In this document: positions 2,752 through 39,259 of the stretch, piece after piece
Layout: every line of letters begins with the position of its first letter
Position numbering within the stretch: the stretch's first letter is position 1
Source of the DNA: Gammaproteobacteria bacterium
GTDB taxonomy: Bacteria; Pseudomonadota; Gammaproteobacteria; Magnimaribacterales; TMED112
DNA: 40,016 bases
Direction: 5' to 3'
Assembly (NCBI GenBank): GCA_002692425.1
Contig: NZKB01000026.1
Location: 1 to 40,016 of the forward strand
Translations under genes and position numbers: made by a program
Notes under the pieces: model-generated
What the model saw: only the letters and a program-made list of their open reading frames with translations
Database searches by the model: none
Told to the model about the DNA's origin: nothing

Positions 2752-2756
2752 CCTTG

Positions 2757-4526: not shown

Positions 4527-4539
4527 TAAAATCTCTTTT

Positions 4540-4977: not shown

Positions 4978-4981
4978 GAAC

Positions 4982-6799: not shown

Positions 6800-6801
6800 A
6801 T

Positions 6802-10232: not shown

Positions 10233-10554
10233 ATTATATAAGGGCTTTAGTTTGTTAGAGGTTGTTATAGCTTTATTAATTATTTCAATAACTTTTTTAG
10301 CTTATAACCAACTTATTGAACAGAATTTAAAATCACAAGAATTAAAACAAATTTTCATTAATGAGTCAGATAAAAAATTAAATCTATTAACGATTTATGT
10401 TTCTGACCCGGATGTACAACAATATGAGGTCAAACAAATTTTAGATATCAATGAAATATCAGAAACAAAAATTTCGTCATATCGGAATTTTGATGAAATA
10501 AAAATAGATTTTAAATCTCAAGACGACATCGTTTACATAACAATAATTAAATAA
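10222..10554 (+). CDS. gspI: Minor pseudopilin GspI
   Basis: Prepilin motif YKGFSLLEVVIALLIISI. TTG start at 10222, preceded by AGGAGG (10208-10213) with an 8-nt spacer. Size (about 110 aa) and position fit GspI. Confidence 0.75.
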   Translation: MNSKLYKGFSLLEVVIALLIISITFLAYNQLIEQNLKSQELKQIFINESDKKLNLLTIYVSDPDVQQYEVKQILDINEISETKISSYRNFDEIKIDFKSQDDIVYITIIK

Positions 10555-12061: not shown

Positions 12062-13071
12062 ATGTTTTTATATTTAATAATTTAAACTTAGATAACGGAA
12101 TATTTATTAGTGATAAAACACTTAAAAAGATTAATATTAATGAACTTAGTACAACTGAAAACACATTATTTGTTGTGCCAAATGAACTTCTTCAGTTCAT
12201 CGAATTTAAGCATGATTTAAAAAATAACGAAAATATTCATGCATCAATACTTAATAGTTTGAGTACATTGAATAATGATGCTGAAGACTTAATAGTATTA
12301 AATTCATCGAATAAATATAATTTTTTTATATCCAGTAAAAGCTACCAAGAAACAATAAAAAGATTGTTTAGTCACTTTAATACAAGAATTTCAATTACCT
12401 CTGATTTACTATTCTTTAAAGAAGTTATAAAGCAAAATTGTAGTTATCAAAACAATGTCTATTTAATCGAGTCTGAAGAGGCAGTAAAACTTTCTACGAA
12501 ATCATTTAATTTACTAGATGATGCGATGAAAATTAAATCACTAACTGATCTTGATCTTAAAAAAATAAAAGATACTAATTACACAATCTATCAGTTAAAT
12601 ACCTTCAATTTATACTCAATTTTTAATTTCAAAAATTCTTTAAAACCAGCATTAGCAGTGTTATTTCTTATTTTTACTTTTTATGTTACTGCCCTGTTAA
12701 ACATTAACTCCAACTACTCTCAAATTAATAAAATGAGTACAACACTTGAATCAATTTATAGCTCTATTTATCCTGCGGAAAACATAACTGACATTCATCA
12801 ACAAATTGACATAAAGCTTAATAATCTGAACAATGCGGAAGCTAATGATTTATCAAAAACTATAAATCTTCTCAAGAACCTATCAGAATCGATAAATATA
12901 GTAGAAGCCGAGTATTCACAGGGTGATTTACAAATAAAATGTCTCTTTAAAAATGATGCCGAAGAAAGTATTTTTGTAAATCAACAAAATAGACTAAATT
13001 TCAATTTTACAATTGTAAATAGCAAAGACACACAAATAGGAAAAATTACAACATTTAGTTATGAATTATAA
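12058..13071 (+). CDS. gspL: Type II secretion assembly protein GspL (by position and topology)
   Basis: 337 aa with a single internal TM helix (LKPALAVLFLIFTFYVTALLNI) separating a cytoplasmic N-domain from a small periplasmic C-domain. It lies between gspK and gspM. The sequence is very divergent and AT-rich. Confidence 0.6.
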   Translation: MNVFIFNNLNLDNGIFISDKTLKKININELSTTENTLFVVPNELLQFIEFKHDLKNNENIHASILNSLSTLNNDAEDLIVLNSSNKYNFFISSKSYQETIKRLFSHFNTRISITSDLLFFKEVIKQNCSYQNNVYLIESEEAVKLSTKSFNLLDDAMKIKSLTDLDLKKIKDTNYTIYQLNTFNLYSIFNFKNSLKPALAVLFLIFTFYVTALLNINSNYSQINKMSTTLESIYSSIYPAENITDIHQQIDIKLNNLNNAEANDLSKTINLLKNLSESINIVEAEYSQGDLQIKCLFKNDAEESIFVNQQNRLNFNFTIVNSKDTQIGKITTFSYEL

Positions 13072-13480
13072 ATTTTCAGCAAGAGAACTTTTGTTAATTA
13101 AGATATTAACTGTAATAGCTTTTGTAATAGCGTTTTTTTATGGGACGTCTTACGTTGCAAATGAAATAACTAAATCAAAAAATTTAATATTCTTTGAAGT
13201 TAATAAGTTCAATGAAAAGAAACAATTACTTGCTCAAATTAAAGCTTTAGAAAATAGTAAAAATTTGGAATTATCAGCGGACGATTTTCTTTTAGATCTT
13301 ACAGCAAATAATATTTCTTATGAACAGAAAGATGATGAGATTCTTATTTCTGGATTATCAAATGTAGATGCTCTAGAAATAATGACAAACATTGAAGAAA
13401 GTAACGTTGCAATAGACAGTTTTAAATTTAGTGCTGGAGAATCCACAAATATAATTCTAACTATTAAATTTAATGGGTAA
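13061..13480 (+). CDS. gspM: Type II secretion assembly protein GspM (by position and topology)
   Basis: 139 aa with an N-terminal TM helix (LLLIKILTVIAFVIAFFYG) and a periplasmic domain of about 100 aa. Overlaps gspL by 11 nt. Confidence 0.6.
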   Translation: MNYKFSARELLLIKILTVIAFVIAFFYGTSYVANEITKSKNLIFFEVNKFNEKKQLLAQIKALENSKNLELSADDFLLDLTANNISYEQKDDEILISGLSNVDALEIMTNIEESNVAIDSFKFSAGESTNIILTIKFNG

Positions 13481-14135
13481 ATTCTTTCTAACCTTACTCT
13501 TAATGTTCATGCTGTTATTTGGCTCTCTATTTTTTATTCCCATAAATTTTTTTGTATCCAGTATTATGAAAAATTTAGATGTTGATATTGAGTATTCATA
13601 TCTAGAAGGAAATATTTTTTCTGGAAAAATTTTAGATTTATATTATGACAATAATTTTATTGGAGATTTTAACTATAAGAATCAATTTACATTCAACGAT
13701 ATTTCTGCAAATTTTTATTCTATTGATGAAAAAAATATTGCAGGTACAGTTGTAAAAGATTTACATAATATCACTGACATAGGAACTATAGTGCTTAAGG
13801 ATTTTTCAGCATCAAGTGTAGTTTCAACTGATTTAATTAAGTATGTAGATTTAGATCTTAATGTCCAAGAACTAGAAATCAAAAATTTTGAGTGTGCGTA
13901 TATTAATGGAAATTTAAAAATTTCATCCCAGGAAATAAATGAAGAACTAATTGGCGAATTGGCATGTTTTGAAGGTAACACAATCTCAGCAGAACTATTT
14001 AATAAAAGAATGAAAGAATTAGGGAATATAACTTATTCAGATTCTCAAATACAAGTAAGAATATCTACAAAAACAATACCGGACAGAAGAGTCCAATTAT
14101 TAATGGACTATGTTTCTTTTACAATTGATCTTTAA
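13473..14135 (+). CDS. gspN: Type II secretion protein GspN (by position and topology)
   Basis: 220 aa with an N-terminal TM helix (FFLTLLLMFMLLFGSLFFIPI). It is the last gene of the operon and overlaps gspM by 8 nt. Confidence 0.5.
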   Translation: MGKFFLTLLLMFMLLFGSLFFIPINFFVSSIMKNLDVDIEYSYLEGNIFSGKILDLYYDNNFIGDFNYKNQFTFNDISANFYSIDEKNIAGTVVKDLHNITDIGTIVLKDFSASSVVSTDLIKYVDLDLNVQELEIKNFECAYINGNLKISSQEINEELIGELACFEGNTISAELFNKRMKELGNITYSDSQIQVRISTKTIPDRRVQLLMDYVSFTIDL

Positions 14136-14943
14136 TAACCTTTTTGACCAATCCATCAGATATACTCCAGAACGTATTTTCAATAACTTGAGAGTTAAGC
14201 TCCTCAATTATTAGACTATATAAATTTAAAGCTACGGGGATAATATCAATTCGATCTTTTGGTATATCATGCTTTTCTATTAAAACAGTATTATCTATAG
14301 ACTTATAATTGGTTACGTAATGATTAAAGTCAGAGGTCTTTATAGGACCTTTAATTTCATTTGCTTGCATTAAAGCACGTAAATTTCCACCCAAACCATA
14401 TACATGATCTATAGATCTAAATTGACGAAGCCATATGCTTAATTCTTGCAATGCTTCGGACTTTTGGGTTTCACTAAAGTTTAATAATCTTACAGCCCCT
14501 AATTGAAAAGATTTAGCGTGAATATCATTATTGGTATTAATACAAATTTCCAAACTGCCGCCACCAATATCTACAACAGCAGAATTTATTTTTGATTTAT
14601 TAAATTCCGCAAGTAAAAATGCTTCAACATCACCTGAAATAATCTTTACATGAATATCATGTTGTTTCAGCAACTCTATTATCTCTTTCGCATTTTGGGT
14701 ATCTCTCAATGCAGAGGTTGCAATATAGTTAACAATTAAAATATTTTTGCTTTTAAAGTTTTTTTTATACTCAAGCAGTAAATTTAATAAATCTTGAATA
14801 GTTTTATCTTCTAAGAAACCCTTAGAAAATACATCTCGCCCAAGCCTTAAAGGATGTCTGTAATATTCAACAAGTTCCAGACCTCCATTAAAGATTTTAT
14901 ATTTAATTGCATTTGATCCAATATCAACAATGGCGTATTTCAT
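14119..14943 (-). CDS. ppx: Ppx/GppA-family exopolyphosphatase (short, ASKHA N-terminal domains only)
   Basis: The N-terminus MKYAIVDIGSNAIKYKIF, then ATSALRDTQN, ISGDVEAFL and VVDIGGGSLEI, match the Ppx-GppA phosphatase fold motifs. It lies 3 nt downstream of ppk2. Confidence 0.85.
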   Translation of the reverse strand: MKYAIVDIGSNAIKYKIFNGGLELVEYYRHPLRLGRDVFSKGFLEDKTIQDLLNLLLEYKKNFKSKNILIVNYIATSALRDTQNAKEIIELLKQHDIHVKIISGDVEAFLLAEFNKSKINSAVVDIGGGSLEICINTNNDIHAKSFQLGAVRLLNFSETQKSEALQELSIWLRQFRSIDHVYGLGGNLRALMQANEIKGPIKTSDFNHYVTNYKSIDNTVLIEKHDIPKDRIDIIPVALNLYSLIIEELNSQVIENTFWSISDGLVKKVIKDQL

Positions 14944-14946
14944 AAC

Positions 14947-15780
14947 TCAATCTGAGAAGGGCGCAAGAATTTTATATTGTTCATAATTTAAATTATCAAA
15001 TAATACACCTTCGATATAACATGAATATTGGCCAAGATCTTCACCCCATTTTGGTGGTTCAAGAGTTTCCTTTCCTTCGTAATCTAGGGTATTTAGGATG
15101 TATCTAAGAGCACTTAGCCTAGCAATCATTTTGTTATTCGCATTAATAATAATCCAAGGAGAGTTTGATCTAGCAGTTAAGTCAAACATTTGATTTTTAT
15201 AAAGAGTGAAAACATCCCATTTATTAACCATCAATTTATCTGAAGCAGATAATTTCCAGTATTTTAATCTACTATTTTTTCTTGCTGATAAACGTCTTTG
15301 CTGTTGATCTTTGTCGATTGAAAAATAGAATTTAACAACTTCATTACCATTTGAAATTAATTTATCTTCCCACTTATTCACATTAGTCATGAAGTCTTCA
15401 TAGTGTTTTTTTGTGCAATAGCCCAAAGTTGGTTCTGTCAAAGCTCTGGTATACCAAGAGCGATCAAAAAGAGCAATTTTTCCTTCCTCTGGCAAGTGCT
15501 TTTCCCATCTTTTAAACCAATCATCTTTTTCCTCTTTAGTTGGTATTCCTAAATGAATATATCTAAAATTTGATGGGCGCAGATGCTCAGAAAAAAAATT
15601 GATAGTTGAAGATTTACCTGCTGTATCTCGCCCTTCAAAACACAAAGCTATTCTTCTTTTATTTTTAATAACATCTTCTTGAAGCTTAAGAAGTTCGACT
15701 TGTAATTTATATTTTTCTTTTTTATAAATTATCGGACCTAAAGTCTTATATTGTTCAAATTTATATTCGATGACACTCAT
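14947..15780 (-). CDS. ppk2: Polyphosphate kinase 2 (single-domain PPK2)
   Basis: PPK2 Walker-A-like block FEGRDTAGKSSTI, then FDRSWYTR and the lid region RLSARKNSRLKYWKLS. 277 aa. Confidence 0.9.
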   Translation of the reverse strand: MSVIEYKFEQYKTLGPIIYKKEKYKLQVELLKLQEDVIKNKRRIALCFEGRDTAGKSSTINFFSEHLRPSNFRYIHLGIPTKEEKDDWFKRWEKHLPEEGKIALFDRSWYTRALTEPTLGYCTKKHYEDFMTNVNKWEDKLISNGNEVVKFYFSIDKDQQQRRLSARKNSRLKYWKLSASDKLMVNKWDVFTLYKNQMFDLTARSNSPWIIINANNKMIARLSALRYILNTLDYEGKETLEPPKWGEDLGQYSCYIEGVLFDNLNYEQYKILAPFSD

Positions 15781-15832
15781 GTATATTTTTAGAAAAGAGG
15801 ATATAGTATAAACAAATATTAACTTTCATGTT

Positions 15833-17092
15833 ATGACTCTAGTTGAATTATCGCTCTTCGGAATCCCTTTAATACTTATTTCTTCCGCTATGTTAGGTTT
15901 TTTTACAGCCTATGGTGTGGGAGCAAATGATGTTGCTAATGCCATGGGGACATCTGTGGGTAGCAAAGTCTTAACGATCAAACAAGCAATCTTAGTAGCA
16001 GCTATTTTTGAATTTTTAGGAGCATTTCTAGCAGGCGGTGGCGTAACGCAAACAATCAGAAAAGGAGTAATAGATCCTGCACTATTCGAGGGGAATCTAG
16101 AAATTTTGATATATGGAATGATTTCAGCCTTATTTGCTGCTGGCACTTGGTTGTTAGTTGCCAGTCTTAGAGGTTGGCCTGTTTCAACTACGCATACTAT
16201 TGTTGGAGCAATTGTTGGTTTTGGTATATATACACTAGGCATTAATGAGATTAACTGGGCTGTAGTTGGAAATATTGGCCTTTCATGGATTACCTCACCC
16301 TTATCCTCAGCCCTAGTAGCTGGCTTATTTTATTACATTTGTAAAACTTACATCATAGATAATGAATCAAGATTTAAAGGCTTGATCATAAGAATTTATA
16401 TATTCCTTGCAGGGTTTGCTATAGCACTTATTACTGTTACTAAAGGATTAAAAAATATATTCAAACAACAAGAATTGTTTGTTAGTTTTCAACAAAGCGT
16501 TTTAATTTCTGCCTTAGCTGCAGTTGTATTTACTTTTATTTTCTACTATTTTTCTAAGGCTAAATTAAAAAAATCTGTAAATTCTGAATCACAGTTTGCC
16601 TACCTTATGATCTTTACTTCATGTGCAGTAGCCTTTGCACATGGATCTAATGATGTTGCTAATGCTATAGGACCATTAGCTGCAATCAATCAAGCAACTA
16701 GCCAACTTTTAAATCAACCATACTCCCTTGAAACTCCTCTATGGATACTCTTCCTCGGAGCTGCTGGGATTGTTTTAGGTTTGGCTACACTAGGTTATAG
16801 AGTTATGAAAACTATTGGTGAAAAGATTGTTAAACTCACACCAAGTAAAGGCTTTTCTGCTCAACTTGCTGCCGCCTTAACAGTAGTGATTGCAAGTCAA
16901 TTAGATATGCCTGTATCAACGACTCATACCTTAGTAGGCGCAGTTATTGGAATTGGGCTTGTTGAAGGAGCAAGTACAATAAATTTTAATTCGGTGAGAA
17001 CTATTGTTTTATCTTGGGTGGTAACATTACCTGCTGGCGCTCTTTTATCAATAGCATTTTTAGAGATATTTACTAATCTTTTCACTTATTAA
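15833..17092 (+). CDS. pitA: Inorganic phosphate transporter, PiT family
   Basis: Duplicated PiT signature GANDVANAMGTSVGS / GSNDVANAIGPLAA and about 10 hydrophobic helices. Confidence 0.9.
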   Translation: MTLVELSLFGIPLILISSAMLGFFTAYGVGANDVANAMGTSVGSKVLTIKQAILVAAIFEFLGAFLAGGGVTQTIRKGVIDPALFEGNLEILIYGMISALFAAGTWLLVASLRGWPVSTTHTIVGAIVGFGIYTLGINEINWAVVGNIGLSWITSPLSSALVAGLFYYICKTYIIDNESRFKGLIIRIYIFLAGFAIALITVTKGLKNIFKQQELFVSFQQSVLISALAAVVFTFIFYYFSKAKLKKSVNSESQFAYLMIFTSCAVAFAHGSNDVANAIGPLAAINQATSQLLNQPYSLETPLWILFLGAAGIVLGLATLGYRVMKTIGEKIVKLTPSKGFSAQLAAALTVVIASQLDMPVSTTHTLVGAVIGIGLVEGASTINFNSVRTIVLSWVVTLPAGALLSIAFLEIFTNLFTY

Positions 17093-17108
17093 TTAAATTG
17101 CTACTAAT

Positions 17109-17126
17109 CTGTCACAATTTTGCAAC
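17109..17126 (+). promoter_or_regulatory. Weak candidate Pho box upstream of the TonB receptor-phytase pair
   Basis: CTGTCAC-AATT-TTGCAAC. The first heptamer matches 6 of 7 positions of the enterobacterial CTGTCAT half-site and the 4-nt AT spacer is correct, but the second heptamer matches only 3 of 7. It lies 41 nt upstream of the ATG at 17167. Confidence 0.2.
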
Positions 17127-17166
17127 ACATTAAGATTATTGTAGATTTCTAAATAGGTAAGTTTAA

Positions 17167-19713
17167 ATGAAAAAAATAAATCTCTCTTTATTAATTAGTT
17201 TACTTTCTTTTACTTTTTATGCTCAAGAATCAACAACCGAAGATGTAGTTGATTCAATTGAAGAAGTTGTAACTGTAGGGACTAGAGCTAGCTTAAAATC
17301 AGGTCTCGATAAACAAAAAGAATCCAACCAAGTAGTTTCAATTGTTGATTCCGATGCAATAGGTGATTTTCCAGATGAAACTGCAGCTGAAGCTGTTAGA
17401 AGACTTTCAGGTGTTTCAGTTGAAAATGATCAAGGAGAAGGCCGTTACGTTACTCTTAGAGGTATGGCCGGTGGTTTAAATGCTGTTGCAATGAATGGTG
17501 CATTAGTACCAGCTCCTGAAGGAGGCAGAAAAGTTCTACTTGATGGTTTACCAACAGAACTCCTAGATTCAATTGAAGTGTATAAAACGCTTACACCTAA
17601 CCAAGATTTAGAGGGTATCGGTGGTAGAATTGAATTTAATACAAAAAAAGCTACAGACCTAGATGAACAAGTTCTAAAATTTAGATACGATACGCAATAT
17701 AACGAATTCTCTAAAAGAACTAATAACCCAAAATACTCACTTACGTATGGTGACAAATTCACCGAGAGTTTTGGTGCAATATTTGGATATACATTTCAAA
17801 GTAAACATATCATTTCTAATAACAATGAAGTTGGTTATGAACCTTGGAATATTGATGATAATGGTAATAAATATCTAGCTCGTGATTGGGAAATGAGATT
17901 CTATGATCTAACTAGAGAAAGAGAGGGCATGACTCTTGATATAGATTTTGAATATTCGCCTAATACATCTTTTTTTGTGAATTATCTTTTTAATGAATAT
18001 GTTGACGATGAAGTTAGACACAAAGATGAATACAGAGCAAGGAATGTTGTTGAATCATCCATCACACCGACATCAGCTGCATATCAAAGAATAACCGCTG
18101 ACAAAGAAACAAGAAAACGTATAGAAACAAGACAAATTGAAACACAAATTATTGGTGGAGAAACTAGTTTTGGAGACCTAAATTTTAAGTTTCAAGCAAG
18201 TAATTCTTTTGCTGAAGAAGCTGATGACAACAATGTAGATGGTAAATTCAGGAGTGAATGTCGAATTAGAGAAGGAGACGAAATTTGTGGTACATACAAC
18301 TGGTCTGACCCAAAATTTATAAATGTTGTATTAGCTCCAGCAGCAGCAGATTTACTTGATCCAAGCTCATATTGTTGGGATGAATTTGAAATTGATTATG
18401 GTGTCATACAGGATGAAGAAAAAGCTATTAAATTTGACTTTGAGAATGAAAACTTTGAATTGTTTGATACACCAATGGTTTTGCAATTTGGTTATAAATT
18501 TAGCAGTAGAAATAAGTCTAATACTGAAGGGAATCTAGATGGAAGTGATGCTATGTCACCATTTGGGATGATTTCTTATAACCCATACACTCCAGATAAG
18601 TGGTATTTTCCACAAACACTTGGCTTTTTTGCAGACCCAGATTTCCTATTTGGTGCACAATCGCAATTCAGACCATTAGACGTAGAATTAGCAGATTTTT
18701 GGGAAACTGAAGAAGAAATTAATGCATTTTATCTAATGTCTACCTTCGATTATGGTAATGCAGTGGTTGTTGCAGGTGTCAGACATGAAGATACTTCATT
18801 TAAAACATTTGGATATAACGATGGTGATATTAATGATGTCCTAAGTTTTTATCGAGACTATGGATTTACCGCTCCAAGCATAAATGTGAAATATTTTTTG
18901 GATGATAATACACAATTAAGAGCAGCATTCTATCGATCTTTATCAAGACCAGGTTTTGGAGAAACAGCACCTATAGCAGATATTAGTGAAAACGAAGGTA
19001 GTGGTCAGTTTAGAGGCTCTATGGGTAACCCAGATTTAGAACCATACGAATCAAATAACCTAGATTTTTCATATGAATACTACAATGATGGTTTAGTTTT
19101 AACCGCTGGAGTTTTCTACAAAGATATTGAAAATACCATTTACCCAAGGGTTATTGCAGATCAGACCATTGGTGGAATATTTTTTACAGAGCTTGAAACC
19201 TATGCTAATGCAGGATCTTCTTCAATATTAGGAATTGAATTAAATCTGTTCGCTGAATTAGATAATTACTTACCTATTGATGGCTTTTTTGCAGCTTTCA
19301 ATACAACTTTAAGTGATGGAGAAAGCGATTTTGACACTGGTTTAGGTACATTTACAATCCCATTTAGAAAACTTTCTGAAGAAAATGCCAACCTTTCATT
19401 AGGGTACGACAAAGGAAAAATAGACGCTAGATTAGCTGTGAACTATCGCTCAAGCTATCTTGATTACCTTGGCGATGAAGGTGAAGACTTGCTTGATAGT
19501 GATTTTAATTATGGTTTTATTAGATTTACAGATGACTATCTTTCTTACGATTTAACCGCTAAATATAAATATTCAGATAATCTGTCATTCAAATTTGAAG
19601 GTAAAAATTTAGGCAATAGACCTGAATATTACTATTGGAATACTTCAGATAGGCTGTCACAATATGATGAGTATGGATACACATTGTCTTTTGGCATCAG
19701 ATATAGCTACTAA
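17167..19713 (+). CDS. TonB-dependent outer-membrane receptor
   Basis: Signal peptide, TonB-box-like EEVVTVG, plug domain (RRLSGVSVENDQGEGRYVTLRG, IEVYKTLTP), a long barrel, and a terminal aromatic residue (FGIRYSY). Confidence 0.9.
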   Translation: MKKINLSLLISLLSFTFYAQESTTEDVVDSIEEVVTVGTRASLKSGLDKQKESNQVVSIVDSDAIGDFPDETAAEAVRRLSGVSVENDQGEGRYVTLRGMAGGLNAVAMNGALVPAPEGGRKVLLDGLPTELLDSIEVYKTLTPNQDLEGIGGRIEFNTKKATDLDEQVLKFRYDTQYNEFSKRTNNPKYSLTYGDKFTESFGAIFGYTFQSKHIISNNNEVGYEPWNIDDNGNKYLARDWEMRFYDLTREREGMTLDIDFEYSPNTSFFVNYLFNEYVDDEVRHKDEYRARNVVESSITPTSAAYQRITADKETRKRIETRQIETQIIGGETSFGDLNFKFQASNSFAEEADDNNVDGKFRSECRIREGDEICGTYNWSDPKFINVVLAPAAADLLDPSSYCWDEFEIDYGVIQDEEKAIKFDFENENFELFDTPMVLQFGYKFSSRNKSNTEGNLDGSDAMSPFGMISYNPYTPDKWYFPQTLGFFADPDFLFGAQSQFRPLDVELADFWETEEEINAFYLMSTFDYGNAVVVAGVRHEDTSFKTFGYNDGDINDVLSFYRDYGFTAPSINVKYFLDDNTQLRAAFYRSLSRPGFGETAPIADISENEGSGQFRGSMGNPDLEPYESNNLDFSYEYYNDGLVLTAGVFYKDIENTIYPRVIADQTIGGIFFTELETYANAGSSSILGIELNLFAELDNYLPIDGFFAAFNTTLSDGESDFDTGLGTFTIPFRKLSEENANLSLGYDKGKIDARLAVNYRSSYLDYLGDEGEDLLDSDFNYGFIRFTDDYLSYDLTAKYKYSDNLSFKFEGKNLGNRPEYYYWNTSDRLSQYDEYGYTLSFGIRYSY

Positions 19714-20764
19714 ATCTAGATCATATTTATTAAGAGCAAGTTTTTTACTTGCTCTTTTTTTTCATTCTTTATTATTGTTTGCGGAGAAAATAGATTACGT
19801 ATATGAAACTGAAGCAGTCTCTTCAATGGGGGATGCAGCTGATGATCCAGCAATCTGGTTTAATCACGTAGATCCTACTCAATCCTTAATCTTTGGAACA
19901 GATAAGCGAAAAGGTATTCATGTCTACGACTTATATGGCAAAGAATTAAGTTTCTCTGAACTAGGTGCCACAAATAATATTGATCTTAGAGTTATTGATG
20001 AGAATGTTCATATGGTCATTTCGAATAGATCTTCGAGCACACTTGGCTATTGGGTATTCCCTGAATCCAACTTGTTTAAGTATTTTTCAGATCATCCGAC
20101 AGATGCCTTTACAGAAGATATTACTCATTATCACCTAAAAGCAAATATGAATGTTTATGGCGTATGCATGGGATTTGTAAATGGTCTACCGTTTGCGGCA
20201 TTGACCGAAGAAGAGGGCCCAACGATTCAGGTGTGGAACCTTATTTCTAAAGAAGTAGTTGGAGAAATTAATATTATCGTTGATGAAGAAGATGCACCTA
20301 AATCAGGTAACGAAGCTGAAGGCTGTGTATTTGATGATGAAAATAGCCGTTTATTGATCTCCAGAGAGGGCTCTAAAGGTTATTTGAAAGCTTATGAGTC
20401 AGATTCATTACAAATGATAGAAGTTGTTGATTCAAGAGATGGGAATATTATTGGTGATCCAGAAGGTGTAGCAATATATAAAACTTCTGATACAGAAGGA
20501 TACATCATACTCTCCTCACAAGGTGGTAATGAATTTAACCTGTACGACCGAAAAAGTTTAGATTTTGTTAGTAAATTTAAAATCAATTCCGTTGAAGATA
20601 CTGATGGTTTAGATGTCACTAATGAAGCCGTTGAGGGTATATTTCCAAAAGGGTTTTTAGTGGTACAAGACGGTAGAAACTTGCCTAATAATCAAAATTT
20701 TAAATTAGTGAGTATGGAAGAAGTACTCAAAAAAAAACTGAGCGCTCCTGGCTTGATCAATTAA
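19664..20764 (+). CDS. Beta-propeller phytase (3-phytase, BPP family), secreted
   Basis: BPP hallmark GDAADDPAIWFN..IFGTDKRKGIHVYDLYGK plus later DPEGVAIY and TDGLDV blocks. The N-terminus has a signal-peptide-like KSRSYLLRASFLLALFFHSLLLFA|EK. The start is ambiguous (ATG 19664, 19667 or 19673, or TTG 19691); every option overlaps the receptor gene's 3' end. Confidence 0.85.
   Translation: MMSMDTHCLLASDIATKSRSYLLRASFLLALFFHSLLLFAEKIDYVYETEAVSSMGDAADDPAIWFNHVDPTQSLIFGTDKRKGIHVYDLYGKELSFSELGATNNIDLRVIDENVHMVISNRSSSTLGYWVFPESNLFKYFSDHPTDAFTEDITHYHLKANMNVYGVCMGFVNGLPFAALTEEEGPTIQVWNLISKEVVGEINIIVDEEDAPKSGNEAEGCVFDDENSRLLISREGSKGYLKAYESDSLQMIEVVDSRDGNIIGDPEGVAIYKTSDTEGYIILSSQGGNEFNLYDRKSLDFVSKFKINSVEDTDGLDVTNEAVEGIFPKGFLVVQDGRNLPNNQNFKLVSMEEVLKKKLSAPGLIN
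19732..19762 (+). terminator. Intrinsic-terminator-like hairpin after the TonB receptor stop, inside the phytase signal-peptide codons
   Basis: A perfect 10-bp stem, AAGAGCAAGT (19732-19741) paired with ACTTGCTCTT (19747-19756), with a TTTTT loop. A T run follows (8 consecutive T at 19755-19762). It starts 19 nt after the receptor stop codon (19711-19713). Confidence 0.6.
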
Positions 20765-32145: not shown

Positions 32146-33009
32146 ATGCATAAAATTCCTACTATTTCTTACAATGATCTTGTAACTACTAATAAGGATG
32201 TTTTAGATTTTCTTACGTCATCTCTTGAGAATAACGGGTTTTTTGTAATAAATGATCATCCAATAGACCTCAATCTTATAAACAGAACTTTTGATATTGC
32301 TGAAGAGATGTTTAGTCTGCCCTATGAAACAAAAAATAAATACCATGTTCCGGGGACAAATGGCGCTCGGGGATATACTCCCTACGGAATAGAAACAGCA
32401 TTAAACGAAAAAGTAGCAGATCAAAAAGAATTTTGGCATCAAGGATCAACAACAAATGATGGATTGCTGCCGAATATTTATATAGATGAAGTAAAAAATT
32501 TTAATGATCTCGATGTTCTCTATAAAGAGTTTGAAAATATGGGTGTTGAAATTTTAAAAGCATTTACAAATTTTAATTTAGACTATAATTCAGACATTGG
32601 AGATGCTGCTAAAAATGGTAACTCTATTCTACGATTAATACATTACCCCCCAACAGATGGATCAAATCAACATAGAGCTAGAGCCCACAATGATGTCAAT
32701 CTTATTACACTCCTAATTGGAGGCAATGAAGCAGGGCTTGAAGCACAAGACAAAAAAGGGAATTGGGTTGAATGCAATTGCAATGAAAATGAAATAATTT
32801 GCAACATAGGAGATATGCTCGAAATTATTTCAAACGAGAAATTAAATAGCACTCCTCACAGGGTTGTATCAAAAGGCAATGAAGGGAAATCTAGATACAG
32901 TATTCCTTTTTTCTTACATCCTAGGCCAGAAGTAATGTTGAACACGAAAAAAACATTAACTGCAGATCAATTTTTAACTAAAAGACTCCAAGATATTAAA
33001 CTTAATTAA
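32146..33009 (+). CDS. 2-oxoglutarate/Fe(II)-dependent oxygenase (isopenicillin-N-synthase-like family)
   Basis: LRLIHYPP, an HxD iron triad in RAHNDVNLITLL, a distal His in STPHRV, and RYSIPFF (2OG-binding Arg-x-Ser). Confidence 0.85.
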   Translation: MHKIPTISYNDLVTTNKDVLDFLTSSLENNGFFVINDHPIDLNLINRTFDIAEEMFSLPYETKNKYHVPGTNGARGYTPYGIETALNEKVADQKEFWHQGSTTNDGLLPNIYIDEVKNFNDLDVLYKEFENMGVEILKAFTNFNLDYNSDIGDAAKNGNSILRLIHYPPTDGSNQHRARAHNDVNLITLLIGGNEAGLEAQDKKGNWVECNCNENEIICNIGDMLEIISNEKLNSTPHRVVSKGNEGKSRYSIPFFLHPRPEVMLNTKKTLTADQFLTKRLQDIKLN

Positions 33010-33011
33010 AT

Positions 33012-34223
33012 ATGGAATATTATCTTCAAATACTATTGGGTTTATTTATCTTAATAGGCGTTGTTGTCCCACTTTCTACAAACATAAAAGCCATCAGTAT
33101 TAAAAATATTGTCGCAGCAATCGTTGTGATGATTTTATTTGGTTTTATCCTACTAAATGATTATGTAGCCGGGTTTTTTGAAATTATTAGTGCAGGTGTA
33201 GCTAAACTCTCATCTGCAACAGCAGATGGTACTGCATTTGTATTTGGATCACTTTTTGAACAACATCCTTATGCTTTCGCATTAAACGTTTTACCTTTAA
33301 TAATTGTTATGTCTACATTAAGTGCTTTGCTATGGCACTGGAGGATACTACCAATGGTTATAAAAGGTCTTTCATATGTATGTGAGAAACTATTTAATCT
33401 AGGTGGCCCAATATCGTTCGGTGCAGCTGCTAATGTCTTTGTTGGTCAAGTTGAAGCACCGTTATTTGTAAAACCGTACCTCTCTAAAATGAGTAAAAAA
33501 GAATTATTAATTCTTATGACGGCAGGCATGGCTACAGTGTCTGGATCCGTCATGATTGCTTTAGCAGGGGTGTTAGAAAATCAGTTTGTTGGTATCAATA
33601 TAGTTCAACATTTTCTCACTGCATCAATATTGTCTATTCCGGGTGCGATTATGTACGCTGAGATAATGTATCCATCGAACGACATTACCCACCACATTGA
33701 AGATGCAAAAGAAGAAAAAATTTACGCGGGGTCGATGGACGCAATTACTAAAGGAACGAAGGATGGGCTCAATATTGCTGTTAATGTTGCGGCAATTTTG
33801 ATTTCAATACTGGCACTAGTATCTATAGTTGATGGTGCATTGGATCTTTTAATATCTGGTATGTCCTTACAAAAAATACTCGGCTATATCTTTGCACCAA
33901 TTTGTTGGCTTCTGGGAGTACCATGGTCAGAAGCACCGTCAGCAGCTGAATTATTAGGCCTTAAATTAGCCACGAATGAATTTGTAGCATACATACAATT
34001 AGGTGAATTAGAACCAGAATTTTTTAGTGATAGAACAAAGGTTATTTTACTTTATGCGTTGTGTGGTTTTGCTAACTTCTCAAGTGTTGGGATTTTAATC
34101 TCAGGAATTGGCGCAATGGCACCAGAAAGAACTGGAGATCTAATTGATGTTTCAATTAAAGCTTTAGTTGGTGCTACTTTGGCATCTTGTTTAACAGGAT
34201 TAGTAGCCGGATTATTTGTTTAA
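33012..34223 (+). CDS. nupC: NupC/CNT-family concentrative nucleoside transporter
   Basis: Multi-TM protein carrying CNT-conserved blocks (GAAANVFVGQVEAPL, MTAGMATVSGSVM, KLATNEFVAY, CGFANFSSVGILISGIG). Confidence 0.9.
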   Translation: MEYYLQILLGLFILIGVVVPLSTNIKAISIKNIVAAIVVMILFGFILLNDYVAGFFEIISAGVAKLSSATADGTAFVFGSLFEQHPYAFALNVLPLIIVMSTLSALLWHWRILPMVIKGLSYVCEKLFNLGGPISFGAAANVFVGQVEAPLFVKPYLSKMSKKELLILMTAGMATVSGSVMIALAGVLENQFVGINIVQHFLTASILSIPGAIMYAEIMYPSNDITHHIEDAKEEKIYAGSMDAITKGTKDGLNIAVNVAAILISILALVSIVDGALDLLISGMSLQKILGYIFAPICWLLGVPWSEAPSAAELLGLKLATNEFVAYIQLGELEPEFFSDRTKVILLYALCGFANFSSVGILISGIGAMAPERTGDLIDVSIKALVGATLASCLTGLVAGLFV

Positions 34224-34801
34224 ATTAATCCTGTAATCTTTCTGTAATGTTTTCGACAATAAACTTTGTAATTATCTCCACCAATAAAAACTTTTTCACC
34301 CTCTGTAACTAAATTCCCATCAACAAAACGGGCAACCATTGTCGCTTTACGCGTACAATTCTCATATTCACAAATTGTTTTTAACTCAACTAAATTATCT
34401 GCATAGGCTAACAAGTGCATACTACCTGAAAAAAGTTCTCCTCTGAAATCCGTTCTTATTCCGTAACACATTACAGGGATATTGTATGTATCGCATACTT
34501 TACATAATTCTTTAACTTGTAATTCTGTTAAAAATTGAGCTTCATCAACCAAAATACATGCTATTTGTTGATTTTTTTTATCCTTAAAAAAAGAGTAGAA
34601 ATTAAAACTTTCATCAAAGACATTTGCTTTATGTTGTACACCTAATCGAGAATGAATGTTTCCTTGATGCTGCTGAGCATCAACTTTTGGTGTAAATATA
34701 AAAGTTTTAAGATTTCTAACTTTATAGTTATGATTTGACTGAAGCAGTGAAGTAGATTTACCTGCATTCATGGTTGAATAATAAAAATGTAATTTAGCCA
34801 A
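34220..34801 (-). CDS. tdk: Thymidine kinase
   Basis: YSTMNAGKSTSLLQ P-loop, VDEAQFL, and C-terminal zinc-ribbon cysteines (CEYENCTRKA..VYCRKHY). The apparent start is TTG (reverse complement of 34799-34801). Confidence 0.95.
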   Translation of the reverse strand: MAKLHFYYSTMNAGKSTSLLQSNHNYKVRNLKTFIFTPKVDAQQHQGNIHSRLGVQHKANVFDESFNFYSFFKDKKNQQIACILVDEAQFLTELQVKELCKVCDTYNIPVMCYGIRTDFRGELFSGSMHLLAYADNLVELKTICEYENCTRKATMVARFVDGNLVTEGEKVFIGGDNYKVYCRKHYRKITGLI

Positions 34802-35025: not shown

Positions 35026-37290
35026 ATGAACTTCAAAACACTTGCAACAACTCTCTTTACAATTATATTCGTAGCTGCTTGTGGCGGTGGAGGCGGTGGA
35101 GGAGATTCTTCTTCAAGTCCTTACCCAACACCAGCACCAACACCGGCGCCAACACCAGCACCAACACCAGCACCAACACCAGCACCAACACCAGCACCAA
35201 CACCGGCACCGACACCGGTACCAACTCCAGAACCAACACCAGAACCAACACCTGGAACCCAGGAACCTGTTTGGGTTAATGAATTTCATTACGACAACCA
35301 AGGAGTTGATGCAAATGAATTTATAGAAGTAGCAGGAGTGGCTGGCACTAATTTAGAAGGTTATAAACTTGTATTATATAGTGGCGGTGATTCTGGTCAT
35401 TATGGAACAATCGATTTAACTGGCACTTTGCAAGATGAAGCAAATACTGGTTATGGAGCTGCGAGCTTTTCTATACCAACATCTATTGAAACTGGATTAC
35501 AAAATGGAGCACAAGATGGTATTGGTCTTGTTAATCCAGATAATGAATGTGCAGAATTTTTCTCCTATGAAGGGGATATGACAGCTAATGCCGGCGATGG
35601 AATAGGTGGCGGCAGTGCATGTGATGGATCACAAGGACAGGACATTGGAGTATTTGAACAAAATAGTTCAGAGAACGACTCTCTGCAAAGAACCGGACAA
35701 GGTTATGGTGGCTCAGACTTTAATTGGGTCGGACCAGTAACAGCATCAGCAGGATTTGTAAATAATGATCAAACTTTCGGAGATCCTGTACCCACACCAG
35801 AACCAACTCCAGCACCTGAAACATTCTTGTTTTCAAAAGCTGTTTTAGTTGGTGAAGTTCCATCAGATTTTTACGATAGAGATGCTGACTATCCAACATG
35901 GAGAGATGCAGATGGAGATTGTAAATCAGATAGACATGAAGTTTTGCAAGCACAACATATAGATGATGATTCCTCTAACCCGTTGGTATTTTCTTCTAGT
36001 GGTTGTTCAGTTCTAACAGGTAAGTGGCAAGATCCTTTTGATGGTTCTTTTTACTATAGTGCCTCTGATATTCAAATAGACCACGTAGTTGCTTTATATG
36101 AAAGCCACATTAGTGGTGCAGGTGCTACAGGTAGTAATGCTTGGACTGCCGAAGAAAAAGTGAACTTTGCAAATACTGGTAACAGGGTGGCAGGAACACT
36201 TCCTGAAACTTCTAATCAATTTTTAGCAGTGGGAGGCGCTACAAATGGCCCTAAAGGTTCAAGTGATCCTACAGAATGGATGCCACCTCTATCGGAATAC
36301 CATTGTACTTACCTTAAAAAATGGGTAGAAGTTAAACATTTAAATGACCTCTATTTCGATGAAAATGAATACAATTTTATCAAAGCGGAAGAAGCAAATT
36401 GTGACGATAGCCCACTTCCTACATTGCCTGCTAATGATGACAGCGGCGGCGGCGGCGGTGGTGGCGGCGGCGACGCACCAGAAGGATCTGTATTCATAAA
36501 TGAGTTGCACTACGATATGGTTGGTGTTGATACAGACGAATACGTTGAAATTGCTGGACCCGCTGGCACTGATCTTTCAGGCTGGAAGCTTGAATTTTAT
36601 AATGGTAATAATGACTCATTGTATGATCAAATATCACTTTCAGGCGTAATTTCAGACGCAGGTGAAGGATATGGATTTATCGTCGCAGAATCTTCACAAA
36701 TACAAAATGGAGCACCGGATGGGATTGGCCTCATTGACCAAAATGGTAACTGTGCTGAACTTATAAGTTACGAAGGTACAATGTCGCCAACTGATGGCCC
36801 ATGTTCATCTTTCACATCAAATGATATTGGTGTTATTCAAAGCAATAGCACACCTCCTGAAGATTCACTCCAAAAAACTGGTACTGGTACCGTAAGCAGT
36901 GACTTTACATGGGTAGGACCAGTTACAAAAACGAAAGGCACTCAGAATGCTGATCAAAGCTTTGGTACAGAACCAACAACCTTTGTTGTCACTGCAACTG
37001 GCCTTGATTATATAATAGATGGTGTGATGCATGCCACAATTACCGTTAAACGAGGCGCCACCTACATATTTGATGTTTCAGATGTTAGTGCTCCACATCC
37101 ATTTAGACTCAGTACAACACCAGATGGTGAATGGGGTGGCGGTGTCGCATTCGACGACGGTGTTAGTTATGTTAATTCTGGAACTATTGGCTGGATGGTA
37201 CCTGAAGATTTAACTAATGACGTTATGTATTACTATTGCACATTGCACGCTGGCATGGCAGGTTCAGGTGTTATTCAAGTAATTGATTAA
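35026..37290 (+). CDS. Multidomain extracellular lipoprotein nuclease: lipobox / (PTPx)11 / LTD-like 1 / DUF1524 (His-Me finger) nuclease / Gly9 / LTD-like 2 / cupredoxin-like
   Basis: Lipobox FVAAC (Cys19). Two paralogous modules begin VWVNEFHYDNQGVDANEFIEVAG and VFINELHYDMVGVDTDEYVEIAG (lamin-tail-domain style, as in ExeM/Xds-type nucleases). The central block YDRDADYPTWRDADGDCKSDRHEVL..KWQDPFDG..SDIQIDHVVAL..SGA..W..FAN..N..AV..NGPKGSSDPTEWMPP..YHCTYLKKWVEVK matches the secreted DUF1524/GmrSD-C nuclease family. The C-terminus carries HPF...YYYCTLHAGMAG. Confidence 0.8.
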   Translation: MNFKTLATTLFTIIFVAACGGGGGGGDSSSSPYPTPAPTPAPTPAPTPAPTPAPTPAPTPAPTPVPTPEPTPEPTPGTQEPVWVNEFHYDNQGVDANEFIEVAGVAGTNLEGYKLVLYSGGDSGHYGTIDLTGTLQDEANTGYGAASFSIPTSIETGLQNGAQDGIGLVNPDNECAEFFSYEGDMTANAGDGIGGGSACDGSQGQDIGVFEQNSSENDSLQRTGQGYGGSDFNWVGPVTASAGFVNNDQTFGDPVPTPEPTPAPETFLFSKAVLVGEVPSDFYDRDADYPTWRDADGDCKSDRHEVLQAQHIDDDSSNPLVFSSSGCSVLTGKWQDPFDGSFYYSASDIQIDHVVALYESHISGAGATGSNAWTAEEKVNFANTGNRVAGTLPETSNQFLAVGGATNGPKGSSDPTEWMPPLSEYHCTYLKKWVEVKHLNDLYFDENEYNFIKAEEANCDDSPLPTLPANDDSGGGGGGGGGDAPEGSVFINELHYDMVGVDTDEYVEIAGPAGTDLSGWKLEFYNGNNDSLYDQISLSGVISDAGEGYGFIVAESSQIQNGAPDGIGLIDQNGNCAELISYEGTMSPTDGPCSSFTSNDIGVIQSNSTPPEDSLQKTGTGTVSSDFTWVGPVTKTKGTQNADQSFGTEPTTFVVTATGLDYIIDGVMHATITVKRGATYIFDVSDVSAPHPFRLSTTPDGEWGGGVAFDDGVSYVNSGTIGWMVPEDLTNDVMYYYCTLHAGMAGSGVIQVID
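35125..35256 (+). repeat. Tandem 12-nt repeat (CCAACACCAGCA and variants, 11 units) encoding the (PTPA)7-PTPV-(PTPE)2-PTPG linker
   Basis: Read directly from the sequence. Units are in phase from 35125, and several consecutive copies are identical. Confidence 0.95.
36445..36471 (+). repeat. GGC/GGT trinucleotide run encoding a Gly9 inter-domain linker
   Basis: The run ggc ggc ggc ggc ggt ggt ggc ggc ggc is read directly. A second Gly7 run lies at 35083-35103, just after the lipobox Cys. Confidence 0.85.
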
Positions 37291-37311: not shown

Positions 37312-38208
37312 GTGAGAAAATTATTATTCCTACTAATAGTATCCTTTATTTTTTCTCCAAAAATTCAGGCCAATTCCTCAATTATTACTCAAAGTGTAGA
37401 TTTTGATAGTCCTGAAGGTTGGGGTATGGCATACATGACAGCAGCTTCTTTAAACCTTGCAGATAGCTTTCCTGAAAAATTATCTTTTGGAGAATTTGAA
37501 ATATCAGCAGAGATTAATAGCATCCCAGAATTAAATTCAGAACAACAAAAAATAGGTTTTGGCGGTCTCAAATATGAAGATTTGAATAAATCACCAGTTT
37601 TTGGAAAAGGAAAGATTAAAATGGGCTTTTATTATGACTCTATTTTAGAATTTAGTTATACTCCACCGCTTGAAGTGAATGGCGCAAAACCTAAAGATTT
37701 ATATGGTTTTTCGTTATCAAAAGAATTAATTAAAAATGATAGTTTAAACTTTGGATTACGCGTTTTTAATTTATCTGGTCATGCAGTAGCTGATGTTACT
37801 TGTAGTAAACAAGTAGTAAGTGAACCCCTTTACGCACCTGGCAATCCCTCAGGTTGTATAAGCACATCTAAAGATAAAATAGATTTAGGTCATAAGGGTC
37901 TTGAAATGATTATTATGCCCAATAATAAAAATCCTAAAATAAAGCCCTGGGTTTCTCTTGCTTTTTCAAAAATTGATCCGTCAGTGCGAATTGATGCACA
38001 GTTGGAAGTAATTAGAGAAATTGCACTAGTTAAAACAAACGGTTCAATTAAAACCCTAAATTTTGGTTTGAATTATGCATTATCAGATAAATGGGTACTA
38101 TTCCTTGGAACATCTTATACTCCTCTAGATGTTGTTAGACCTGGTCCTGCTGGAGGAGACGACAATTTCTGGAATTTTAGAGTTGGTCTAAGCTTAAAAG
38201 GAATTTAG
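37312..38208 (+). CDS. Hypothetical exported protein, outer-membrane beta-barrel-like
   Basis: GTG start and signal peptide MRKLLFLLIVSFIFSPKIQA|NSS. The sequence alternates hydrophobic and polar residues in a Gly/aromatic-rich pattern and ends FWNFRVGLSLKGI. No family was recognised. It lies 21 nt downstream of the nuclease gene. Confidence 0.5.
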   Translation: MRKLLFLLIVSFIFSPKIQANSSIITQSVDFDSPEGWGMAYMTAASLNLADSFPEKLSFGEFEISAEINSIPELNSEQQKIGFGGLKYEDLNKSPVFGKGKIKMGFYYDSILEFSYTPPLEVNGAKPKDLYGFSLSKELIKNDSLNFGLRVFNLSGHAVADVTCSKQVVSEPLYAPGNPSGCISTSKDKIDLGHKGLEMIIMPNNKNPKIKPWVSLAFSKIDPSVRIDAQLEVIREIALVKTNGSIKTLNFGLNYALSDKWVLFLGTSYTPLDVVRPGPAGGDDNFWNFRVGLSLKGI

Positions 38209-38225
38209 CTCAGACTATAACTGTC

Positions 38226-38489
38226 TTATTCTTCTATTGTTTCTTCAATAACTGCAGGTTTTTGGAAATCGCATTCTAGTCTGGCTATAACTTCACCTTC
38301 AACATCAAGATTTAATCTAGCTCGTCCTTGCATTTCCCCCGTGACCATACAGTATGCTAATGTTTCTTGAACCACCATTCTGACAATATTAGTTAAATCT
38401 TCAACACTAATATCAGATATCTTCTGGTCTTGTATATCTTCGGCATTAATGAACAATGGCAGTAAAAGCAATATTAATAATTTTTTCAT
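38226..38489 (-). CDS. Small secreted protein (87 aa, 2 Cys), unknown function
   Basis: Signal peptide MKKLLILLLLPLFINA|EDI. A strong SD (AGGAG, reverse complement of 38496-38500) lies 6 nt upstream of the ATG. Confidence 0.6.
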   Translation of the reverse strand: MKKLLILLLLPLFINAEDIQDQKISDISVEDLTNIVRMVVQETLAYCMVTGEMQGRARLNLDVEGEVIARLECDFQKPAVIEETIEE

Positions 38490-38713: not shown

Positions 38714-39259
38714 TTAACAGATTTCTTCCGTTAAACTTGGAAAATTATTTTTGGGGCTGTTTACTTGTTTTGAGACTTTGTAAAACTTTACATCATGATT
38801 GGCTGATGAGTCGTAAATATTTTGTCCCATAAAATACTCGCCAATTTCATTCTCATGCAATAAAACCGGTTGTCTTTGATGAATGTGGCTAAGCGTATCA
38901 GCTGATTCTCGAGTTAGTATGCAACATCCAGATTCATTAAATATTCCTGCAAAATATTTGGCGTTTGAGTAATGATAATAGGGAACCTTAGCATCTTTTT
39001 GTTTTTGCCATTCATACCACCCAGAAAAGGGAATGATACATCTATTGGCACCTTTAAAAGAAGGCTTTTCTGTAATTGTTTCTAAGCGACAATTAATTAG
39101 ATTCATATCTGGTTTCCAGGAAGGTGAGTAGGACCATTTCATAAGCTGGCCATCACAATTAATTGTTTTTACAGGAATTGATGTGGCAGGAGTAATATTA
39201 AAATTATCATTAAATCCTAATTCGAATGGGTCGCCTACTAAACTAAATCGTCCACACAT
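38714..39259 (-). CDS. yedK: SOS-response-associated peptidase (SRAP/YedK family, abasic-site processing)
   Basis: The invariant N-terminus MCGRF (catalytic Cys2), INCRLETI (Asn), GWYEW (Glu) and HQRQPVLL (His) blocks are present, together with C-terminal YKVSKQVNSPKNN. Confidence 0.9.
   Translation of the reverse strand: MCGRFSLVGDPFELGFNDNFNITPATSIPVKTINCDGQLMKWSYSPSWKPDMNLINCRLETITEKPSFKGANRCIIPFSGWYEWQKQKDAKVPYYHYSNAKYFAGIFNESGCCILTRESADTLSHIHQRQPVLLHENEIGEYFMGQNIYDSSANHDVKFYKVSKQVNSPKNNFPSLTEEIC

Follow-up and report, generated by a model that had tools for sequence, protein, structure and literature searches.

Extracellular multidomain nucleases are already known as a kind of system. 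Enzymes of the ExeM/NucH/Xds type degrade extracellular DNA and serve to acquire nutrients (PMC6085458), and lamin-tail domains (LTDs) also accompany the His-Me nucleases of the Endonuclease_1 family (PMC5714182). Nucleases of the DUF1524 family have so far been known only from cytoplasmic restriction enzymes of the GmrSD type. Here, we describe a protein of 754 amino acids, confirmed by translation, which is encoded on the forward strand at positions 35026–37290 of a 40,016-nucleotide stretch of gammaproteobacterial DNA (contig NZKB01000026.1; this whole stretch is referred to as the window). The closest loci found by a scan with the nuclease core of this protein are those of SAR86-cluster genomes (95–98% identity), so the window comes from a SAR86 bacterium, a member of an abundant and long-uncultured group of the ocean. 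We propose, with a probability of roughly 0.6, that the protein is a lipid-tethered surface DNase that is exported by a type II secretion system (T2SS) and feeds nucleoside and phosphorus salvage.

New in this protein are the core from the uncharacterised secreted branch of DUF1524, the symmetric placement of this core between two LTDs and the fusion to a marine cupredoxin-like module shared with phage tail fibres, the last connection being the most surprising element. Dissolved DNA is a major pool of organic phosphorus and nitrogen, and a locus with a nuclease, a nucleoside transporter and a thymidine kinase provides a testable route by which SAR86 could consume it. In a published genome comparison, nucleosides appear merely as one possible substrate, and a nuclease is not mentioned. 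The core would also give the first functional handle on the secreted DUF1524 branch.

Overall architecture and orthologues

The protein is composed of a lipobox with Cys19, a stalk of PTPx units, a first LTD module (LTD1), the His-Me core, a hinge of nine glycines, a second LTD module (LTD2) and a C-terminal cupredoxin-fold domain, in this order (Table 1). A preliminary description of this DNA, made from the letters alone, had listed the lipobox, the stalk, the hinge and a series of core motifs, and all of them are present in the translated sequence. The core motifs are YDRD (residue 283), DADGDC (294), IDHVVAL (351), FAN (381) and NGPKG (407); HPFR (691) and YYYCTLHAGM (735) lie close to the C-terminus. 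The glycine run covers residues 474–482, where orthologues keep either a glycine run or a PT linker. Besides the lipid-bearing Cys19, there are two cysteines in each LTD and four in the core, and Cys738 alone has no partner within its module. The cysteine pattern fits an oxidising extracellular location, and the lone Cys738 is consistent with a role as a metal ligand.

The GC content of the nuclease gene (42.5% versus about 33% in the neighbouring genes) hinted at a foreign origin. This origin was ruled out, since the GC content at third codon positions (0.226) equals that of the neighbours and the excess arises from a composition rich in Gly, Thr, Asp, Ser, Pro and Ala. Thus, the gene is native to the genome.

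Species-representative genomes scanned with the core gave 32 loci. Full-length orthologues of 742–772 amino acids, which start with FVAAC-GGGGGGG and vary in stalk length, are encoded in eight SAR86-type loci, and the modules of SAR86 orthologues with the identical layout are 55–98% identical. Other SAR86-type loci encode reduced nucleases, in which the core is followed by the cupredoxin module (two loci) or stands alone (three loci). In Halieaceae, Luminiphilus and SAR92, the core occurs in a cadherin–nuclease arrangement of about 345 amino acids or in a cadherin–LTD–nuclease–LTD arrangement of 812 amino acids. Four Halieaceae-type loci with the latter arrangement carry a second LTD gene (32–40% identical) on the reverse strand, about 2.4 kb upstream of the nuclease. 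The view in the preliminary description that secreted DUF1524 nucleases are usually single-domain does not hold for this branch, whose relatives are mostly multidomain, with cadherin–nuclease, cadherin–LTD–nuclease–LTD and nuclease–cupredoxin layouts. The same description found the combination LTD–DUF1524–LTD–cupredoxin unfamiliar; the LTD–nuclease–LTD part recurs in Halieaceae and SAR92.

The His-Me nuclease core

The core, taken as residues 265–470, is connected to the family PF07510 (GmrSD_C; gathering cutoff 23 bits) through its relatives. Among the 60 homologues found, P0055 is 37% identical over 178 amino acids (E = 6e-23, database-wide) and passes PF07510 at 32.2 bits, and P0058 is 35% identical (E = 4e-17) and passes at 36 bits. 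Several close relatives show sub-threshold PF07510 scores of 12.7–19.7 bits in the same region. The earlier assignment to DUF1524 therefore holds by homology to P0055 and P0058, the query itself having no direct match to PF07510. Public databases give the name 'hypothetical protein' to every relative that was looked up, and a family profile of the core matched no PDB sequence.

In an alignment of 16 core sequences, Asp352 and His353, Asn383 of the FAN motif, Asn407 and Lys410 are invariant (D88/H89, N119, N143 and K146 in core numbering), as is the D-x-D-x-D loop, and the four cysteines are nearly invariant. These residues are kept across lineages that are only 36–68% identical. Transitive homology together with motif conservation supports membership of the core in DUF1524. 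The Asp-His, Asn and Asn/Lys positions are the putative catalytic residues, and the DADGDC loop probably binds a metal.

The LTD modules

LTD1 and LTD2 are 46% identical over 170 amino acids (E = 7e-45) and are true paralogues. The whole protein matches the Pfam LTD family (PF00932) in two stretches with 39.2 bits against a cutoff of 34.3; scanned alone, LTD2 scores 27.5 bits and LTD1, which is conserved across SAR86 orthologues, has no Pfam match. A search with the mature protein gave hundreds of proteins with LTDs that are about 50% identical, at E values around 1e-120, and both modules match LTD-annotated proteins, which confirms the earlier LTD assignment.

Most of the proteins that share these LTDs are extracellular nucleases with an Endonuclease_1 domain (PF04231), the endonuclease/exonuclease/phosphatase (EEP) domain of ExeM/NucH (PF03372) or PF19580. 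LTDs are thus not confined to the EEP nucleases with which the preliminary description paired them; they are common on Endonuclease_1 His-Me nucleases as well. Judged by these matches, the LTD subtype is a general accessory of extracellular nucleases, His-Me enzymes included.

The C-terminal cupredoxin-fold module

Direct searches with the isolated C-terminal module gave no match in Pfam, NCBIfam or PDB, and the PF00127 cutoff of 21.2 bits was not reached. Among 64 relatives, PF00127 is marginal in two and PF25489 is matched in eight; Pfam covers this family only marginally. An exhaustive profile search gave 4,868 representative clusters at E ≤ 1e-3. The His, Cys, His and Met residues of the putative copper site are invariant in close relatives and 94–96% conserved in 236 domain copies, in which they are among the most conserved positions. 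A narrow profile of 13 sequences matched no cupredoxin in PDB. A profile of 56 sequences matched plastocyanins (E = 1.2e-4) along almost the whole length and aligned all four copper ligands; amicyanin, pseudoazurin and nitrite reductase came next. The alignment-based AlphaFold (AF2) model of the module has a predicted local distance difference test (pLDDT) score of 95.8 and a predicted template-modelling (TM) score of 0.87. Its top 30 Foldseek matches in PDB are all cupredoxins (rusticyanin, AcoP, nitrite reductase, pseudoazurin, plastocyanin and laccase domains) with probabilities of about 1.0 and TM scores of 0.55–0.62. By profile and model, the C-terminal module has a cupredoxin fold, as the preliminary description had suspected.

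That description also called the domain blue-copper-like. The fold and the ligand set agree with this label; the closest relatives, however, are modules of marine phage tail fibres and not blue copper proteins. In BFVD, predicted structures of tail-fibre, baseplate and virion proteins from marine phages superpose with TM scores of 0.75–0.87 and a root-mean-square deviation (RMSD) of 2–3 Å at 25–37% identity, with E values down to 9e-11. The tblastn search located the module in 320 phage records at 36–44% identity, including 241 Synechococcus phages, 54 cyanophages, 19 Prochlorococcus phages and two Pelagibacter phages, and the ligand signature HP[FI]R...YYYC..H..M is intact in the phage copies. 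Examples are found in Cyanophage S-TIM5 (L034, 301–618) and Pelagibacter phage Baldr (L035, 301–585). Sequence and predicted structure alike place the module much nearer to these phage modules than to the blue copper proteins.

Cellular relatives combine the module with collagen repeats, cadherin, Big_9, fn3, CBM_4_9, SPRY and Peptidase_S74, which belong to surface or fibre proteins and not to oxidoreductases or nucleases. Four stand-alone lipoproteins (P0199, P0200, P0220 and P0231) consist of a lipobox, Cys-GGGS, a Gly/Ser-rich linker and one cupredoxin-like module only, which suggests that the module works as an autonomous, probably surface-anchored unit. No publication was found that connects cupredoxins with extracellular nucleases or with the tail fibres of cyanophages. 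The sharing of this module with hundreds of marine phage tail-fibre proteins raises the question of copper in virions and of what the module recognizes; copper binding by these modules would make the tail fibres of marine phages copper proteins.

Lipid anchor, stalk and candidate export route

The signal peptide ends in FVAAC, with Cys19 followed by GGGGGGG-DSSSS, in agreement with the lipobox pattern [LVI][ASTVI][GAS]C. All full-length SAR86 orthologues have an FVA[AS]C lipobox, and nearly the entire nuclease family begins with Cys-GGG. Surface lipoproteins of Acinetobacter, Burkholderia and Shewanella that depend on the T2SS and GspN carry a Gly/Ser-rich GGG or ND(N/D) at P2′–P4′ after the lipid-bearing cysteine, a motif that is necessary, yet insufficient alone, for surface localisation (PMC12802150, 2025). 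The C-GGGGGGG-DSSSS segment of the SAR86 protein has this GGG at P2′–P4′, and its export by the T2SS as a surface lipoprotein is a motif-supported prediction. The preliminary description had taken the glycines at +2 and +3 as the mere lack of an inner-membrane retention signal; they are present, but are better read as a T2SS sorting or Lol-avoidance motif. Its comparison with PulA-type T2SS cargo is strengthened by the published motif. PulA-type cargo depend on Lol avoidance ahead of T2SS export.

The N-terminus also aligns with a homologue of the lipoprotein SslE/AcfD (PDB entry 23px, E = 7e-11; NCBIfam SslE). Much of this alignment is a low-complexity PTPE repeat, so it was counted as supporting evidence only. 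SslE is a T2SS substrate.

The 11 PTPx units of the stalk occupy residues 34–77 and correspond at the DNA level to a 12-nucleotide tandem repeat of 10.7 copies at 35125–35252. The copy number and the mix of PTPA and PTPE vary among SAR86 genomes, as seen in the window and in orthologues at seven further loci (L002–L007 and L030). Many metagenomic gene calls of the nuclease family begin at internal Met codons, and Ns are found in the stalk region of one locus (L001). The repeat likely breaks assemblies or gene calls of this family and hence produces N-terminal truncations.

A candidate export route lies about 21 kb upstream of the nuclease gene, where the preliminary description had placed a T2SS; Pfam matches identify GspD, E, F, G, H, I, J and K. 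Three ORFs of 337, 139 and 220 amino acids at 12058–14135 take the usual place of gspL, gspM and gspN or gspC, and may be divergent T2SS components or have another identity. The T2SS cluster lies within an island of phosphorus-related genes (window positions 2065–20764), which suggests that the T2SS serves phosphorus scavenging.

Gene neighbourhood

Upstream of the nuclease, a 2-oxoglutarate (2OG)-Fe(II) oxygenase, a concentrative nucleoside transporter (CNT) and a thymidine kinase form a block that precedes the nuclease in all 13 of the 13 SAR86-type loci, reduced-nuclease lineages included. Because this block stays while the modules change, it is the catalytic core that is stably linked to nucleoside salvage, and both the LTDs and the cupredoxin module are accessory. 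The PDB matches of the oxygenase are uncharacterised bacterial homologues, an ethylene-forming enzyme and then fungal thymine dioxygenase (E = 1.5e-17). By these similarities, it is conceivable that the oxygenase acts in pyrimidine or nucleoside modification.

Downstream, an ORF of 298 amino acids starts 22 nucleotides past the nuclease stop codon with no terminator predicted between them, and the two genes are probably co-transcribed. This ORF is 56–91% identical among loci and is present only in those with the full LTD–nuclease–LTD–cupredoxin protein. It has no match in Pfam, NCBIfam or a single-sequence PDB search, and only a PDB profile search gave a match, a weak one to barrel strands of TonB receptors (E = 0.0096). 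The encoded protein may be a β-barrel partner or channel in the outer membrane. Farther downstream, the same SAR86 loci contain an 87-amino-acid signal-peptide ORF with no family match (38226–38489, reverse strand) and an SOS-response-associated peptidase of the SRAP family (38714–39259, reverse strand). Promoter and terminator scans were at or near background.

Table 1. Modules of the nuclease and other features of the window (positions in nucleotides).
Feature	Position	Strand	Basis
OmpR/PhoB-type response regulator	2065–2751		
Histidine kinase	2754–4526		
T2SS genes (gspD, E, F, G, H, I, J, K) with three unrecognised ORFs	4982–14135	+	Pfam matches
gspD–K	4982 to ~12061	+	Pfam
Ppx/GppA	14119–14943	−	
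PPK2	14947–15780	−	
PHO4 phosphate transporter	15833–17092		
TonB-dependent receptor	17167–19713		
β-Propeller phytase	19664–20764		
2OG-Fe(II) oxygenase (DIOX_N and 2OG-FeII_Oxy), head of the oxygenase–CNT–thymidine kinase block	32146–33009	+	Pfam, synteny, PDB matches
CNT/NupC-type nucleoside transporter	33012–34223	+	Pfam Nucleos_tra2_C/N and Gate, synteny
Thymidine kinase, divergent from the nuclease	34220–34801	−	Pfam TK, 158.8 bits; synteny
Signal peptide with lipobox VAAC, Cys19 as predicted acylated residue	35026–35082	+	Sequence; lipobox kept in orthologues
Gly7-Asp-Ser4 segment right after the lipid Cys, GGG at P2′–P4′	35083–35118	+	Sequence
Pro/Thr-rich stalk, 11 PTPx units	35119–35256	+	Sequence and DNA repeat
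LTD module 1, lamin-tail-domain type, ~170 amino acids	35263–35775	+	Paralogy to LTD2, Pfam on whole protein, orthologues
His-Me finger nuclease core, secreted GmrSD_C/DUF1524 branch; DADGDC loop, four conserved Cys	35818–36435	+	Homology bridge to PF07510 proteins, invariant residues
Gly9 hinge	36445–36471	+	Sequence
LTD module 2	36478–36960	+	Pfam LTD, ~50% identity to nuclease LTDs
Cupredoxin-fold module, putative type-1 Cu ligands His691, Cys738, His741 and Met744	36976–37287	+	Conservation, profile match, AF2 model, phage relatives
Downstream ORF, 298 amino acids, signal peptide; no family match	37312–38208	+	Synteny

Proposed function and alternatives

In the proposed mechanism, the protein would be exported by Sec and acylated at Cys19, the Cys-GGGGGGG segment would divert it from Lol sorting, and the T2SS would deliver it to the cell surface. 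There, the Pro/Thr stalk of about 45 residues would space the enzyme from the membrane. The His-Me core would cleave dissolved DNA using Asp352-His353, Asn383, Asn407/Lys410 and the DADGDC loop. The flanking LTD β-sandwiches may hold the substrate or provide affinity, as in the LTD-bearing ExeM and Endonuclease I nucleases; deletion of the LTD lowers the in vitro activity of ExeM (PMC6085458). The cleavage products would then be trimmed and dephosphorylated by further enzymes, none of which was identified in this analysis. The resulting nucleosides would enter through the adjacent CNT and be trapped by the adjacent thymidine kinase, supplying the cell with nucleosides and phosphorus. Lastly, the cupredoxin-fold module probably binds one copper ion via His691, Cys738, His741 and Met744, and its role is most likely attachment or stabilisation rather than catalysis.

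Several observations weigh against this proposal. First, the core lies below every threshold applied (Pfam, PDB profile and PADLOC); it has no NCBIfam or PDB match, and neither the full-length protein nor the isolated core matches PF07510. The single-sequence AlphaFold prediction of the whole protein is uninformative, with a mean pLDDT of 39 and values below 50 over the core, for which there is no confident three-dimensional model. No member of the secreted DUF1524 branch with demonstrated activity was found in the literature. Second, the role of the LTD is unsettled even in ExeM, in which its deletion is tolerated in vivo (PMC6085458). Third, no 5′-nucleotidase or nucleotide phosphatase was found in the window, and a Pho box is absent upstream of the nuclease, the search giving six matches versus 3.7 expected and none in the promoter region. 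Finally, the Halieaceae and SAR92 homologues do not have the CNT and thymidine kinase neighbours.

The location of the protein is where the main rival arises. A periplasmic location is possible, given that in Pseudomonas, according to work cited in PMC12802150, GGG after the lipid-bearing cysteine retains lipoproteins in the inner membrane through Lol avoidance. The nuclease would then be anchored in the inner membrane and face the periplasm, with GGG blocking Lol and the stalk spanning the periplasm, and it would degrade DNA or oligonucleotides that have entered before uptake by the CNT, with no involvement of the T2SS. This arrangement agrees with a T2SS cluster that is 21 kb away and shows no genetic linkage to the nuclease, and in which GspN was not recognized, the three ORFs at the gspL/M/N positions having no Pfam or NCBIfam match; it would also place the nuclease efficiently near the CNT, which resides in the inner membrane. 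However, no route is known by which polymeric DNA could reach the periplasm of a cell that is not competent, and elsewhere this type of LTD and the cupredoxin family occur on proteins that are secreted, exposed at the surface or part of virions. In addition, lipoprotein cargo of the T2SS in three species carries exactly this GGG motif (PMC12802150). The Lol avoidance by itself is shared, as a general matter, with PulA-type cargo before their T2SS export. We thus regard the periplasmic nuclease as unlikely, and as the strongest competitor of the surface DNase.

A bolder version of the surface DNase takes the module to be a true copper-binding cupredoxin, from a large marine family not described before, that acts as an extracellular recognition or attachment domain in the tail fibres of cyanophages and pelagiphages. 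SAR86 would have placed this module and two LTDs on the secreted DUF1524 branch, and the enzyme would dock on cells, debris or virus particles to harvest their DNA. We hold this view very tentatively and think it rather improbable as a whole; if true, SAR86 would be specialised in consuming DNA, both dissolved and bound to particles.

Could the protein instead serve in defence or competition, as a surface nuclease against phage, virion or competitor DNA with the tail-fibre-like module targeting cells or particles? PF07510 is best known from GmrSD type IV restriction (PMC5714182), and the C-terminal module is common to phage tail fibres. However, Pfam detected no DUF262/GmrS domain in the protein, PADLOC gave no match for the core or for five relatives, which disfavours a GmrSD-type defence reading, and no immunity gene is present. 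Phage DNA is injected straight into the cytoplasm and would not be exposed to a surface enzyme, and the conserved neighbours are salvage genes rather than defence genes. A defensive role therefore has a slim chance.

Another reading makes the protein an adhesin for DNA or particles, in which the LTDs and the cupredoxin module attach and the core is dead or only binds. The failure of the core alone to reach the Pfam threshold, the adhesion and fibre proteins that predominate among the cupredoxin-family relatives and the cadherin repeats of the Halieaceae homologues are in line with it, but the invariance of the Asp-His, Asn and Asn/Lys positions and of the acidic loop at such low identity is what is expected of a working active site and renders a mere adhesin very improbable. 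Least probable of all is a bifunctional redox and nuclease enzyme with the cupredoxin as a working electron-transfer centre (for copper oxidative chemistry on DNA or bases, or for surface copper handling): the complete and highly conserved His-Cys-His-Met set, its alignment with the ligands of plastocyanin and the adjoining conserved 2OG oxygenase would suit it, but a redox partner domain is absent, the family members occur in tail fibres and adhesins and not in oxidoreductases, and some SAR86 lineages keep the nuclease without the cupredoxin in the same locus, so that the module is dispensable for the function of the locus.

Comparison with known systems

Like the SAR86 protein, ExeM/NucH and Xds of Shewanella, Vibrio and Alteromonas are envelope-associated or secreted multidomain DNases with an LTD, and annotated ExeM/NucH proteins have LTDs with about 50% identity to the ones described here. 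The catalytic domains differ. ExeM/NucH combines an EEP domain (PF03372) with OB-fold regions, whereas the SAR86 protein has a His-Me finger of the GmrSD_C branch, and Pfam gave no PF03372 signal for it. The arrangement also differs, as ExeM carries a single LTD at the N-terminus and a GlyGly-CTERM-type anchor at the C-terminus, and the SAR86 protein has two flanking LTDs, an N-terminal lipid anchor and a cupredoxin module. The marine Endonuclease I enzymes (PF04231) are likewise extracellular His-Me nucleases decorated with β-sandwich modules of the LTD, PKD and fn3 types (PMC5714182). However, Endonuclease I belongs to His-Me group 9 and the SAR86 core to group 3 (DUF1524), and no Endonuclease_1 signal was found in the SAR86 protein by Pfam.

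GmrSD, BrxU and SspE share with the SAR86 core the catalytic Pfam family, via the homologues that pass PF07510, and the (D/E)H...N...N motif logic. These enzymes act specifically on modified DNA in the cytoplasm and carry a fused DUF262 NTPase domain, whereas the SAR86 protein is a predicted exported lipoprotein without DUF262, and its core is not close to the defence models of GmrSD, BrxU or SspE. Compared with GmrSD, the SAR86 core has an extra N-terminal YDR..W.DADGDC..R.EVL segment, which is typical of secreted DUF1524 proteins such as P0058. Regarding export, PulA, InvL and SslE show the same lipobox, Gly/Ser-rich GGG after the lipid-bearing cysteine and low-complexity linker, and the SAR86 genome encodes a T2SS; their passenger domains are unrelated to the SAR86 protein, and T2SS dependence is only predicted for the latter.

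The C-terminal module shares the cupredoxin fold of plastocyanin, amicyanin, pseudoazurin and rusticyanin, with aligned His-Cys-His-Met ligands and the C-x2-H-x2-M spacing. The TM scores to these classical blue copper proteins are moderate, and the SAR86 module is not a stand-alone electron carrier and has no evident redox partner. The modules of marine phages (cyanophages S-TIM5, P-SSM2 and S-SCSM1 and Pelagibacter phage Baldr, in part assigned to PF25489) are structurally closer, with 25–44% identity and a shared signature. Their settings differ: the phage modules sit in fibre and baseplate proteins, and the SAR86 copy forms the C-terminal module of a nuclease.

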